Origin: a virus
Length of the DNA: 64,000 bases
Virus record (IMG/VR): IMGVR_UViG_3300026549_000035
Coordinates: 96,918 to 160,917 of that record
Reading direction: 5' to 3' (one strand)
The notes beneath the pieces were generated by a model. It saw nothing but the letters and a program-made list of their open reading frames with translations, was not told where the DNA came from and did not search any database. The translations under genes and the position numbers were made by a program. This document shows positions 22,898-62,756 of this stretch, piece by piece. Each line of letters opens with the position of its first letter. Position 1 is the first letter of the stretch.

Positions 22898-23003
22898 AGT
22901 ATCAACTCCTTATTTTTAATCAGATTTAATTATATCAGTATTTATTTCTTTGATTAATTTTATTGGAATTTGAATTGTATTATTATTAATAATTTTCTTT
23001 TTC

Positions 23004-23046
23004 ATTTTCTATATATATTATATCATATTTTTTATAAAAAATCAAA
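23004..23046 (-). promoter_or_regulatory. Promoter repeat copy 1. Other copies lie at about 26296, 30655, 34097, 43109, 47029, 49277, 49701, 53572, 56987, 57433, 57657 and 62648.
   Basis: Consensus ATTTTCTATATATATTATA-N6-8-TTTTTTATAAAAATCAA on the plus strand, which is TTGATT-N17-TATAAT on the minus strand. A hairpin terminator is often immediately 5' of it. Confidence 0.55.
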
Positions 23047-23057
23047 GGGTGATTTTT

Positions 23058-23519
23058 TTAATCACCCTTTAAAGTCTTTTTAATTCGTTCTCTTTCTTCC
23101 ATAAGAAGTGTTCCAAGAATATTTTTTCCTTGAATTTTTTTACAATTTAAGCATGAACAATTACCCCAAAAATTATCATGCCAATAATTGCCTTCTACTA
23201 ATTCTTCATCCCCTGTTGCTAAAAGCTTAACCCTCAAATCAACATCAGCAAATTTTTGCATTAAAAGCTGTTTCATAACGTTTACTTTAATATCTTCCCA
23301 ATCATTCCGAAGAATTAATTGTCGTCCTAATCTTTTTGCTTTGCCCGGTGTTTCAGCTGAGATAATTTCTAATTGTTGTCGAGGATAAATGGTTTTACTA
23401 GCTTGAAAAGCGTGTTCAACAGTACGACAAACAATCCAGTCTTCTTGAACTTTAAGATAAATACAAGAAGGATAAAAATTGCTTAAAAAGTAATATTGTC
23501 CAGAAAAACTGTCAATCAT
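23058..23519 (-). CDS. NADAR/YbiA-like (DUF1768) protein.
   Basis: YFLSNFYP...EHAFQASK...PGKAKRLGR...LLATGDEELVEGNYWHDNFWG. Confidence 0.6.
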   Translation of the reverse strand: MIDSFSGQYYFLSNFYPSCIYLKVQEDWIVCRTVEHAFQASKTIYPRQQLEIISAETPGKAKRLGRQLILRNDWEDIKVNVMKQLLMQKFADVDLRVKLLATGDEELVEGNYWHDNFWGNCSCLNCKKIQGKNILGTLLMEERERIKKTLKGD

Positions 23520-23531
23520 TTATATCCCTCC

Positions 23532-24917
23532 TTATTCTTCAATTTCAATCTCTTGCGCTTCTTCTATATCAGGTTCAACAGCATCGTTTTTTATAATACC
23601 TTCTATACATTTAAAATACCAATTTTTATATTTAAAAGCACAAAATTTAGGTCGATTAACGATTCTAACCACCACACCCTCGCGCACATGGGTCTTACCT
23701 ATTGGATCTGGACCATCATAATAATTTTCTGCTATATTTTTAATCCATTCACCAGCAGAATGAACATCAACCCAAGTATTTTTAGGAATTATTCCTCTCC
23801 ATAATAAAGGAACATATTTTGCACCCATTTGTTCACATCTATAACGCATATAATCAGGTGGATATTCTATAGTATCCCCATCTTCATTAACATAAGTCAT
23901 TCTATATACATAAAAGTCTGATTGAGGAACTTTTTTAGGAATATAAAAAGTTCCTTCATAATCTTCGCCTCTTTGAAGAATAACTCCCGTATCAGAACAA
24001 CCATATGAAAAAATTGTAGTTTTTCCATATTGTTTTATAAAATCTTTATCCTTAGTTTTTTCATTAGATACGCTTGGCATTATAGGTAAATCTTTATCTA
24101 TAAATCCAACAATTTCTCCAAAAACTTCTTCGCCTTTATGTAATTTTCCACGGAAAAAATCTTCATATTGTTTTCTAAATTGATTATTTCCATAAAAACC
24201 ACCATCAAAAGAAGACAATATACATCTTCTAGTTCCAGAAATATAATCCCATTTATAAATTGGAGTTCCTTTTCTGCGGAGAATTCTATCTAATAATGTT
24301 TTTTTATAGCCTTGTAAAACAGGGAGATATCCAATTCTTGAACTAATACCATGCATTTTTAAAGTTATTTCAACAAGATCTCCTATTTGAAAATCTCCGA
24401 GATTATAAGCAAGTTGCTCAGTATCTGCGTGTTCTGCAAATAGAGGCGCAATAGGAACTTTCTTTTTTCTAGCTTTATTTCCTAGTTTAAACGCGGTCGC
24501 AGATTTACTACCGCGAGGTATATATTTACGGCAAATCTCATGTCCTTTTAAAGAGTCAATCTTTTGACCAACTTCAAACTTAGTTTCGCCAGTATATTTT
24601 AAAGATTCTAATGGCATATAAAGTCCTTCAGACTTAGAACCTCTAAATCTCATGGCTCGAATATTACGTTTATTAGGATCTAAATATCCTCCGATATTAT
24701 TACCTTCTGAATCTAACTTTTTAGTAAGATTATTTTGGTTACAATACTCTTCACTTAATTGTAAATCTATTGGAAAATAAATTCCTATATCATCTATTTT
24801 AACACTCAAATCAACTATAACGGATGCTCCAAAGATAGTTGCAATTTGAAGAGAATGGGCATTAGGATGTTTTATTAAATTATCAATTTTTACGATATAA
24901 GCACAATGCTCACTCAT
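23532..24917 (-). CDS. ATP-dependent RNA/DNA ligase-like nucleotidyltransferase (Rnl-like).
   Basis: Motif I KMHGIS, EGVVVRI, and FKYKN-type motifs; no TAG. Confidence 0.5.
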   Translation of the reverse strand: MSEHCAYIVKIDNLIKHPNAHSLQIATIFGASVIVDLSVKIDDIGIYFPIDLQLSEEYCNQNNLTKKLDSEGNNIGGYLDPNKRNIRAMRFRGSKSEGLYMPLESLKYTGETKFEVGQKIDSLKGHEICRKYIPRGSKSATAFKLGNKARKKKVPIAPLFAEHADTEQLAYNLGDFQIGDLVEITLKMHGISSRIGYLPVLQGYKKTLLDRILRRKGTPIYKWDYISGTRRCILSSFDGGFYGNNQFRKQYEDFFRGKLHKGEEVFGEIVGFIDKDLPIMPSVSNEKTKDKDFIKQYGKTTIFSYGCSDTGVILQRGEDYEGTFYIPKKVPQSDFYVYRMTYVNEDGDTIEYPPDYMRYRCEQMGAKYVPLLWRGIIPKNTWVDVHSAGEWIKNIAENYYDGPDPIGKTHVREGVVVRIVNRPKFCAFKYKNWYFKCIEGIIKNDAVEPDIEEAQEIEIEE

Positions 24918-24933
24918 TTTTTCTTCTTCCTTT

Positions 24934-61045: not shown

Positions 61046-61513
61046 TTATCTTTTTGTATTTATCATCATAATTGATCCTGTACTTAAAACAAGAGCTGCT
61101 AAAGCTAAAAATACAGGTAATGAACTTTGCCCAGTTTTAGGTGAAATCGGAGAAGTATCTATAGTTGCGATAGTTCCATTACCATCATTAAAAACAGCAA
61201 TAGCAAAAATATCTGAAGTAGGACGTAATTTAATAGTAGGAGAATAAATATTACCTTCAATAATATTATAAGTTCCTTCAATTTTCCATCCTACAAAGTG
61301 ATATCCTTCTTTGGGCAAAGCTGTAAAAATAACAAGTTCATCGCTTTCAGCAGGAATATCCACTTTATCTACTTCTGCATGACCATGACCATCAATAGCC
61401 ACATGCATGGCATAATAGTTTACCGCAATCGGAGATTCAGCCGCAGAAGTTGAAAAAATACATAAGTTAAAAATTAAAAACAAGGCTAAGAATAAAATAG
61501 TAATTTTTTTCAT
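61046..61513 (-). CDS. Secreted hypothetical protein (signal peptide).
   Basis: MKKITILFLALFLIFNLCIFSTSAAE...; a terminator hairpin lies downstream at 61020-61050. Confidence 0.45.
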   Translation of the reverse strand: MKKITILFLALFLIFNLCIFSTSAAESPIAVNYYAMHVAIDGHGHAEVDKVDIPAESDELVIFTALPKEGYHFVGWKIEGTYNIIEGNIYSPTIKLRPTSDIFAIAVFNDGNGTIATIDTSPISPKTGQSSLPVFLALAALVLSTGSIMMINTKR

Positions 61514-61986
61514 TTTTTTACATTCCTTTCAGAATAATTTTCTCCATAAAGTGCAACTAACATTAAACGATAACACCACATATTAGGCACCATATGAGTA
61601 TTATTAAAATATTCTTCATCGTTATTATTATAATATTTTGCTAAAGCCGCAGCTACGCCTGCAGAACGACTTTGTCCAGCATCGCAATGAACAATAATGT
61701 GTTTATCTTGATTACGTTCAATTACATCAGCTATAATTTCTGCATCATTAGCTGTCATACGACCACTGGAGATAGGATAATTACCATCAATATCAAAAAA
61801 TTCAACTCTACAGATTTCATAAACACCATTACCAATAATAGTGCTCATAAAAGGTTCATCATGATATTCCTCACAAGGAGTAGATATTGAAATTATTACA
61901 CTTTCCTCATTATGAGCTTGATGACAATATTGAATAGCTTCATTTCTATTCATAACTGTAATATACATTTTTAAACTCCTTACCAA
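61510..61986 (-). CDS. Cys-based phosphatase (dual-specificity/PTP-like, CX5R).
   Basis: HCDAGQSRSAGVAAAL. Confidence 0.55.
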   Translation of the reverse strand: MVRSLKMYITVMNRNEAIQYCHQAHNEESVIISISTPCEEYHDEPFMSTIIGNGVYEICRVEFFDIDGNYPISSGRMTANDAEIIADVIERNQDKHIIVHCDAGQSRSAGVAAALAKYYNNNDEEYFNNTHMVPNMWCYRLMLVALYGENYSERNVKK

Positions 61987-62158
61987 TCTATATCTTCATC
62001 GGGGTCAACAGTAGGATCATCCCAATCATCAAGATTAGAATCAATATAGCTATTAAAATTTTCTGGACTTGCACATATTGTATCTTTAAGTGAAAAAGAA
62101 ACAATATCTAATTCTGGTTTTACATATTTTTTCATAAAAAAACTTCCTTATAATAAAA

Positions 62159-62235
62159 TGGTGGGACATCAAGGGTTCGAACCTTGGGTCATCCGGTTAT
62201 GAGCCGGAGGCTTTAACCAACTAAGCTAATGTCCC
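62159..62235 (-). tRNA. tRNA with anticodon CAU (the fourth CAU tRNA in the array).
   Basis: GGGACAT acceptor; TCCGG-CTCATAA-CCGGA. Confidence 0.6.
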
Positions 62236-62238
62236 ATA

Positions 62239-62316
62239 TGGAGCTTACGGTTGGATTTGAACCAACGATCACGGAGTTGCAGTCCGCTGCCTTAAACCAT
62301 ACTTGGCTACGTAAGC
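62239..62316 (-). tRNA. tRNA-Cys (GCA).
   Basis: GCGGA-CTGCAAC-TCCGT. Confidence 0.65.
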
Positions 62317-62756
62317 ATATATAAAAATTTATGAAGATAAGGATTTGCACCTTATATAATAGTCATACCTATCAATCCCAATTATTGGTTAGAGTGCCGA
62401 AGTTGCTTGTTAATGCAACGTATTCTAACAAGGGTTAGCGATGACTTCTCTCTATTCGACACGATTTGCGTCTACCTATTCCGCCACTTCATAATATTAA
62501 AATAGGAAAATCCAAGTTCCTCCACACCGCTTACACTCTATATGTGGGGCAGGCTCAATAATTACATCAGGATCATTTTCTTCGATTTCATAAATAGCTC
62601 CACAACGAGGACATACTACAATCATTTTTAAAATCCTTTCTTTTTCATTTTCTATATATATTATATAATATTTTTTTATAAAAATCAAAAAGTAAGATTT
62701 TATTGTAATTTACTATAAAAAAGCAGAGTAAAATTTTAATTTACTCTGCCCAAAAT

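Follow-up and report, generated by a model that had tools for sequence, protein, structure and literature searches.

A conserved predicted promoter module, in part fused to terminator hairpins, in the accessory region of a TAG-recoded phage genome

A 64,000-nt stretch of the virus record IMGVR_UViG_3300026549_000035 (hereafter the window), which corresponds to about positions 96,881-160,880 of the 177,555-bp ENA contig ena:ERZ27252065:k141_7166 and comes from a large uncultured gut/rumen phage, carries fifteen near-identical copies of a module of about 47 nt in front of accessory genes, tRNA genes and non-coding RNA genes, all of them on the minus strand. From their anatomy, their position and their conservation in diverged phages we consider it reasonably probable that these modules are strong promoters for the housekeeping-sigma RNA polymerase of the host (sigma-A of a Bacillota-type host). 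Where a hairpin stands directly upstream, hairpin and module would form a compact stop-and-restart cassette.

Copies, sequence and placement of the module

The initial annotation had described fifteen near-identical elements of about 42 nt in one orientation. The 41-nt string given there was compared with 100 dinucleotide-preserving shuffles of the window: on the minus strand it has four exact matches and nine with at most three mismatches, and 0 were expected. When five spacer bases were left free, 14 module copies were obtained, and a weight matrix built from these 14 and scanned over both strands of the window added a fifteenth at 49318/49319, in which the −35/spacer part is shifted by 1 nt. 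The matrix scan found no copy on the plus strand and none below 23 kb of the window, and an independent repeat search returned the same 15-member family. Both the number of copies (15, from 23045 to 62688) and their common orientation thus hold, and chance or low complexity was rejected as their origin, as the shuffles expect none.

Each module is composed, in this order, of TTGATT, a 17-nt spacer (TTTATAAAAAAATATnA), TATAAT, ATATAT and AGAAAATRAAAA, so that the pattern TTGATT-N17-TATAAT was correctly recognized at the outset. In copies aligned on the −10, similarity is lost sharply at −36 and at about +13; the conserved element is real, and the true block, from −35 to about +12, is longer than the 42 nt first given. 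A weak A-tract around −42 to −48 lies outside of it. TATAAT is found with 6/6 matches in 15/15 window copies, and TTGATT, with 4/6 matches to TTGACA, in 14/15; module 49319 can be read either as TTGTTT with an 18-nt spacer or as TGTTTT with a 17-nt spacer. TG is present at −15/−14 in five copies and is replaced by TT in the other ten. As predicted start (+1) the A of AG, 7 nt 3' of TATAAT, was used. The modules are listed below, each designated by the position of the first T of its −35.

Module 23045: 22999-23045, minus strand; predicted +1 at 23010; TG extended −10; operon of metallophosphatase, kinase and flotillin-like genes
Module 26337: 26291-26337, minus strand; predicted +1 at 26302; ATG at +24; operon of RNase_T exonuclease, RNA ligase and NADAR genes
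Module 30695: 30649-30695, minus strand; predicted +1 at 30660; TG extended −10; ATG at about +32
Module 34139: 34093-34139, minus strand; predicted +1 at 34104; HD-domain gene, 118-aa open reading frame (ORF) and major-vault-protein-like (MVP-like) gene; adjoins the plus-strand island 34205-39036
Module 42543: 42497-42543, minus strand; predicted +1 at 42508; leader of about 250 nt, then the DUF2828/DUF7788/VWA gene (40699-42252)
Module 43150: 43104-43150, minus strand; predicted +1 at 43115; tRNA-Ser(gga) begins 53 nt after
Module 44100: 44054-44100, minus strand; predicted +1 at 44065; TG extended −10; amber-suppressor tRNA (CTA) begins 22 nt after
Module 47068: 47022-47068, minus strand; predicted +1 at 47033; tRNA-Thr, endonuclease-like ORF and four more tRNAs
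Module 49319 (shifted): 49272-49319, minus strand; predicted +1 at 49283; tRNA-Gln and ROOL RNA downstream
Module 49741: 49695-49741, minus strand; predicted +1 at 49706; tRNA-Ile begins 40 nt after, then tRNA-Pro
Module 53612: 53566-53612, minus strand; predicted +1 at 53577; TG extended −10; tRNA-Arg (237-nt leader), tRNA-Val, skipping-rope RNA and more tRNAs
Module 57028: 56982-57028, minus strand; predicted +1 at 56993; 366-nt unannotated leader, tRNA-Ala and nine more tRNAs
Module 57472: 57426-57472, minus strand; predicted +1 at 57437; ribosome-binding site (RBS) and ATG at about +27
Module 57697: 57651-57697, minus strand; predicted +1 at 57662; tRNA-Gly(tcc) begins 88 nt after
Module 62688: 62642-62688, minus strand; predicted +1 at 62653; RBS and ATG at about +29 (small ORF), then tRNA-Cys and tRNA-Met

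All fifteen copies (15/15) are co-oriented with the genes downstream and lie at distances appropriate for promoters; in the protein-coding units an RBS and an ATG follow at +24 to +32 from the predicted +1. The placement upstream of minus-strand genes and tRNA clusters was confirmed, the suppressor tRNA gene (CTA) lying 22 nt from the predicted start of module 44100. Module 42543 does precede the gene that had been labelled Ro60-like, but the label itself was not confirmed: Pfam assigned only DUF2828, DUF7788 and a weak VWA domain to the protein, and no Ro60 chain was matched in a PDB sequence search.

The modules are confined to the part of the window between 23 and 63 kb, which holds ORFans, tRNAs and accessory genes, while none is found in the replication/lysis part (0-22 kb). 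The next 7.5 kb beyond the window again consist of ORFans and contain five further modules (positions 575, 1948, 2584, 4356 and 5856 of locus L043, at ~65.7-70.9 kb), one before almost every gene, including a NUDIX hydrolase gene, which brings the total to at least 20 copies. In all cases but one, the first ORF after a module is free of TAG. Outside the main array, degenerate relatives of the module with TATAGAAAAAATAAAAG-like start regions were seen before genes on the minus strand at 17829, 15927, 11690 and 40650; two of them precede endonuclease-like ORFs (15852 and 40614).

Conservation in related phages and promoter geometry

An exact-pattern scan of viral contigs yielded 32 loci in about 20 contigs with sizes up to 402 kb (the relative IMGVR_UViG_3300032167_000002). 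The loci fetched from these relatives contain more than 100 module copies, the majority of which had not been seeds of the search. A consensus derived separately for each contig comes out as the same 45 nt in 16 related metagenomic phage contigs, whereas the coding DNA of the relatives is only 66-77% identical to the window. The common consensus in diverged contigs indicates that the whole block, including the spacer and the first transcribed bases, is under long-term constraint. The motif search in related phages that the initial annotation had proposed thus recovers the same module, and its emphasis on conservation beyond −35 and −10 was justified, the cause being constraint and not recent copying. 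Recent segmental duplication was rejected because the similarity ends at the block edges and the consensus is common to contigs as diverged as these. Copies within a contig differ by 5.47 mismatches and copies from different contigs by 6.58, a difference reached in 0/500 permutations, and the sequences thereby indicate a mild concerted evolution superimposed on strong purifying selection.

The contrast between module and surroundings was seen when the orthologous sites behind the MVP-like gene were compared among five phages. Here the module is almost invariant while the gene end aligns only weakly; a hairpin is present in 5/5 phages with differing stem sequences, and unrelated sequences and different genes follow the orthologous module in the five. 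Differences in gene content were also found elsewhere, as the unit 23045-26337 is absent from the related locus L010, and in L015 the module stands directly before the MVP-like gene and the 34.1-40.7 kb island is absent. A scan of contigs from metagenome-assembled genomes (MAGs) gave 10 matches, seven of which are binned as Bacillota and several of which come from ruminant guts. No near DNA match to any phage-collection record was found that would point to a cultured relative, and the GyrA and MVP-like proteins match only distant or uncultured records. Literature searches with the motif strings returned only unrelated primer matches.

The geometry of the block was analyzed in copies anchored on the −10 side alone (TATAATAT[AT]TAT), in which TTGA was sought at spacings of 14-21 nt. 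TTGA was found exactly 17 nt upstream in 110/127 unique copies, one of which also has TTGA at a second spacing; in the remaining 17 it occurs at no spacing within this range. The lengths of the spacer T-run and A-run vary (5/7, 6/6, 7/5, 7/7), but the 17 nt are always kept. Conversely, TATAAT is present in 61/61 copies anchored on the −35/spacer. TG at −15/−14 occurs in 47/89 copies, and the consensus of the relatives, TATGATATAAT, fits TRTG-n-TATAAT, a motif said to have been described by Voskuil and Chambliss in 1998 for the '−16 region' promoters of Gram-positive bacteria. TTGACA and TTGAAA occur as −35 variants in the relatives. The modules thus have the TTGACA-like −35, the spacer of 17 ± 1 nt and the TATAAT −10 that characterize housekeeping-sigma promoters.

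Sites lacking the rigid block are found before the replication genes of the window, namely TTGACA-N17-TATAAT at 4890 and 2195 and TTGACT-N17-TATAAT with TG at 1943, and the same type of polymerase is therefore evidently used outside the module class. No match to a sigma factor or RNA polymerase family was obtained among about 48 window proteins (40 scanned against Pfam and 10 against PHROGs, with some in both sets), nor was a regulator recognized among them. The promoter assignment of the initial annotation is hence supported by sequence anatomy, position and cross-genome conservation, while the phage-specific sigma factor or RNA polymerase that it had suggested as the cause is not: the geometry is that of the housekeeping class with a TRTG-TATAAT match, TTGACA-N17-TATAAT occurs elsewhere in the window, and no such gene was matched among the proteins scanned.

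Transcription would probably start at the A (or G) of AGAAAAT, after an A+T-only discriminator, and the predicted +1 is compatible with the distances to tRNAs and ORFs. The cassettes would then fire right-to-left units across the accessory region, covering ORFans, RNA-repair-type genes, more than 30 tRNAs with the amber suppressor among them, the ROOL RNA and the skipping-rope RNA. Since the genes that come first after the modules use the standard code, activity probably sets in with the start of infection.

Several points weigh against this reading. The −35 is TTGATT and not TTGACA, and the spacer and +1 to +12 vary less than known polymerase contacts would demand. A hairpin stands near no more than 5-7 of the 15 window copies, and of the indels relative to the related phages some are bounded by modules while others end at plain gene boundaries. 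The analysis covered the 64-kb window and about 7.5 kb of flank, and a phage sigma factor, RNA polymerase or regulator could be encoded in the other 105 kb or so of the 177.5-kb contig. Finally, codon usage and gene content are the sole basis for the probable early timing.

Terminator hairpins and alternative readings

It had been stated initially that the module is frequently preceded by a terminator hairpin. A G+C hairpin not more than 25 nt upstream was found in 5/15 window copies, in three of which it abuts or overlaps the module, and two more modules have a terminator 30-50 nt upstream; the association is real but does not extend to the majority of copies. The three abutting hairpins were scored as terminator-like by the scan, with their tails inside the module. 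The hairpins are as follows:

23042-23072, minus strand: terminator hairpin overlapping the −35 of module 23045
26337-26360, minus strand: terminator hairpin abutting module 26337 and overlapping the first −35 base, with TTGATTTTTTT as tail
30698-30725, minus strand: terminator hairpin whose T-tail enters the −35 of module 30695; at the orthologous site four other phages have a hairpin with other stems
42591-42619, minus strand: hairpin with T-run, terminator-like, about 48 nt upstream of module 42543
44107-44132, minus strand: G+C-rich 11-bp hairpin, 6 nt upstream of module 44100
49761-49780, minus strand: G+C hairpin (GGGGAGAAGAAATTCTCCCC), 19 nt upstream of module 49741
62721-62751, minus strand: hairpin with T-run, terminator-like, about 33 nt upstream of module 62688

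In the relatives, by the same 25-nt criterion, a hairpin precedes 46/102 copies as compared with 7% of control positions, and 30 of the 46 hairpins end 0-2 nt from TTGATT. TTGATTTTT thus appears to double as the terminator U-tract of an abutting hairpin. This use as a terminator tail may account for part of the extra conservation, namely that of the T-run, and could explain the fixation of the −35 as TTGATT instead of TTGACA.

The invariance beyond the hexamers might alternatively reflect a sigma-70-type promoter combined with the binding site of a phage factor, located in the spacer (the TTTTTATAAAAA dyad) or in the start region. Candidates for such a factor are an early shut-off repressor, an activator, an RNA-polymerase appropriator or a near-housekeeping phage sigma, and all module units including the suppressor tRNA would be switched together. 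The spacer and +1 to +12 being nearly as conserved as the hexamers in 16 diverged contigs, the fixation of TTGATT in place of the optimal TTGACA, the presence of other sigma-70-like window promoters without the extra bases, which sets the modules apart as a separate class, and the slightly greater likeness of copies within a contig all point in this direction. However, the centre of the T-run/A-run dyad moves by 1-2 nt between variants that look functional, while the 17-nt spacing is kept, which fits a constraint on spacing or shape better than an operator; use as a terminator tail already accounts for part of the T-run conservation, and the scanned window proteins include neither a sigma or RNA polymerase match nor an identified regulator. 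We regard this explanation as unlikely. In its most far-reaching form, the invariant spacer and start region would be the operator of a phage regulator or polymerase-modifying factor by which some 20 or more units are co-switched and the change of TAG from stop to sense is timed, which we judge to be quite unlikely.

A function of +1 to +12 in the RNA (AGAAAAURAAAA), as a shared 5' leader that would serve stability, processing or the addition of a non-canonical cap to +1A, was also considered. AGAAAAT is kept in most copies, and alternative start types (GTAAGAT, CAAAG) recur like distinct leader classes; the NUDIX and NADAR genes in the same region are circumstantial only. Yet the start region is equally conserved before ORFs and before tRNAs, from which RNase P cleaves off the 5' leader, only one copy pairs with a downstream partner, and no structure or Rfam family is associated with the leaders, so that we hold an RNA leader to be very unlikely. 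The equal conservation before tRNAs and ORFs argues against a translational role of +1 to +12 and for one in transcription or in RNA 5' ends in general. The ATG in AAAATGAA was likewise rejected as a start codon internal to the module, since only about one copy in two carries its G and the block is kept equally before tRNAs.

The single pairing copy is that of module 42543. On the minus strand at 42290-42512 a perfect 24-nt inverted repeat was observed, with TATATAGAAAATAAAAAAGTAATT starting 4 nt before the predicted +1 of this module and its reverse complement about 210 nt downstream; the two halves enclose about 170 nt that directly precede the DUF2828/VWA gene, and the segment is absent from L015. 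It has no Rfam match, and its fold is no better than that of shuffles (z = −1.3). The segment could be a non-coding RNA with paired ends, or could have been left by an inversion between modules. That module leaders pair 5'-3' in general, as in a Y-RNA-like family, was rejected since only module 42543 has a long inverted partner and this segment gave the values just mentioned.

It is scarcely credible that the repeats are ends or targets of a mobile or recombining element (resembling miniature inverted-repeat transposable elements, or homing sites) that look like promoters through their A+T-richness: the region is rich in homing-endonuclease-like ORFs, module-adjacent gene content differs among relatives and one partial inverted copy of the 3' part of the module exists (42290-42313), but 15/15 copies are co-oriented with downstream genes at promoter-appropriate distances, apart from the partial copy no paired inverted ends were seen and the matrix scan gave no plus-strand copy, and what does not vary is precisely TTGA in the −35, the distance of 17 nt and TATAAT.

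Known systems, genome context and meaning

Read as host-type promoters, the modules invite comparison with the PeSLs of the T4-type phages RB49/phi1, PST and nt-1/KVP40, in which a G+C stem-loop terminator precedes a strong sigma-70 promoter and an RBS, and which occur in many copies in hyperplastic ORFan/tRNA regions that undergo recombinational cassette shuffling (PMC2839356, PMC4122927). The combination of a stem-loop (of the AAAGGG-loop-CCCTTT type) with a sigma-70-like promoter with a 17-nt spacer and an RBS is found in PeSLs and, here, in part of the copies. In both cases the copies are numerous and cluster where a large phage genome is variable and rich in ORFans and tRNAs, and the genes next to them differ between relatives. 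By analogy, the modules may serve as recombination points for the swapping of gene cassettes, a role to which the unit missing from L010, the differing genes behind the orthologous module and the arrangement in L015 would point. In contrast to PeSLs, the block described here is far more rigid (~47 nt with fixed spacer and start region), and a hairpin is found in less than half of the copies, usually abutting so that the −35 region is the U-tract. The phage is moreover not T4-type: for replication it carries genes of the SPbeta YorF/YorH, DnaB, gyrase and NAD-ligase type, and the scanned window proteins are not T4-type replication genes, the structural genes lying outside the window. As some indels stop at ordinary gene borders and the phage lies outside the T4 type, the window modules are an analogue of the PeSLs and not members of the family. 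Composite terminator-promoter cassettes are a familiar phage design; the phage group carrying them is new.

Dense arrays of near-consensus housekeeping-sigma promoters are known from the early promoters of T5 and the host-takeover module of SPO1, where they drive short units that often end in terminators, and where A+T-rich spacers and conserved initially transcribed bases add strength. Unlike in these phages, the copies described here are near-identical over ~47 nt and kept across diverged genomes, and many of them serve genes for tRNAs or non-coding RNAs, among them the amber suppressor of this TAG-recoded phage. The promoters that RNA polymerases of phage origin recognize (T7-type, the hairpins of the N4 virion polymerase, the early A+T-rich motifs of phiKZ/AR9) are likewise rigid, present in many copies and conserved through the start, but they are single blocks or hairpins without the −35/17-nt/−10 geometry that is the most invariant feature of the module.

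The window has ~30% G+C. When TAG is read as sense, the summed length of minus-strand ORFs increases from 30.9 to 43.2 kb, from which it follows that the phage is TAG-recoded. TAG-rich ORFs are homing-endonuclease-like genes with up to 12 TAG per gene (508-1530, 9157-9993, 14914-15852, 27058-27825, 28737-29639 and 39457-40614) and the plus-strand, tail-fibre-like island 34205-39036; those within module units are endonuclease-like. Thirty-three tRNA genes, one with the anticodon CTA, are located at 42989-62316, without exception on the minus strand; a comparison of the suppressor tRNA with the other tRNAs of the phage gave no clear identity for it.

In the window, Pfam matches were obtained for GyrA, pieces of gyrase B and NAD-ligase, a flotillin-like protein, RNA ligase, NADAR, metallophosphatases, an AAA_33 kinase, an RNase_T exonuclease, an HD protein, the MVP-like protein, the DUF2828/DUF7788/VWA protein and an endolysin with GH25, CHAP and PG_binding_1 domains, and SPbeta-type YorF/YorH replication genes were found in relatives. 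The endolysin architecture, the YorF/YorH genes and the Bacillota MAG bins together point to a Gram-positive host, whose sigma-A would recognize the consensus of the module.

An RNA-repair-type cluster stands behind modules at 19623-25710 and at 2009-2551 of L043, comprising RNA ligase, the AAA_33 kinase, two or three metallophosphatases, the RNase_T exonuclease, NADAR and the NUDIX hydrolase. The MVP-like protein (30743-33214, minus strand) has 823 aa with a major-vault-protein shoulder and repeat domains, and its only phage-collection homologues are in LR756500, LR756501 and LR756503 (uncultured huge phages of 462-735 kb, ~39% identity). Outside the array, the NAD-ligase and gyrase B genes (2192-4841 and 7309-11398) are each split by endonuclease-like ORFs (3004-3696, GIY-YIG 9157-9993 and LAGLIDADG 7309-7932); in the relatives gyrB is uninterrupted in L045 and L046, and the ligase gene is uninterrupted in L045 and GIY-YIG-split in L046.

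The tRNA island further contains a full-length ROOL RNA (48184-48772, minus strand, 332 bits) and a skipping-rope RNA (52611-52721, minus strand, 43.8 bits), each behind a module. Four tRNA-like 3' halves with GGGATTCGAACCC-type T-arms, not called by ARAGORN or Rfam, were seen at 42616-42661, 49205-49250, 54356-54401 and 55117-55151, and could represent extra tRNA genes, degenerate ones or unusual ones. Next to tRNA-Thr, the ROOL 5' end and tRNA-Trp lie the copies of a repeat of 25 nt (AAGCCTTCTCGTGGCGATGCTGTTT on the minus strand, with an identity of 76-100%), at 46762-46786, 48787-48811, 59934-59958 and 60982-61006. The minus-strand motif AAGACnGATACAGCAA occurs in four copies against 0.15 expected (43075-43090, 45371-45386, 49260-49275 and 55828-55843), two of them directly behind modules 43150 and 49319 and the others near tRNAs.

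Taken together, the module provides a predicted transcription map for uncultured large TAG-recoded phages, with 15 predicted starts in the window and at least 100 in relatives, and extends the composite terminator-promoter design of plastic regions from T4-type phages to a group of phages of Gram-positive hosts. The 47-nt motif can be used as a sequence tag for this group in metagenomes and in mis-binned MAG contigs. The suppressor tRNA, the ROOL RNA and most tRNAs sit behind the same type of promoter as genes in the standard code. If the modules are early promoters, synthesis of the suppressor would begin as soon as infection starts, a point of relevance for models in which late-gene translation is held back by recoding; and if the operator explanation were true, one cassette would time the change of TAG from a stop to a sense codon.

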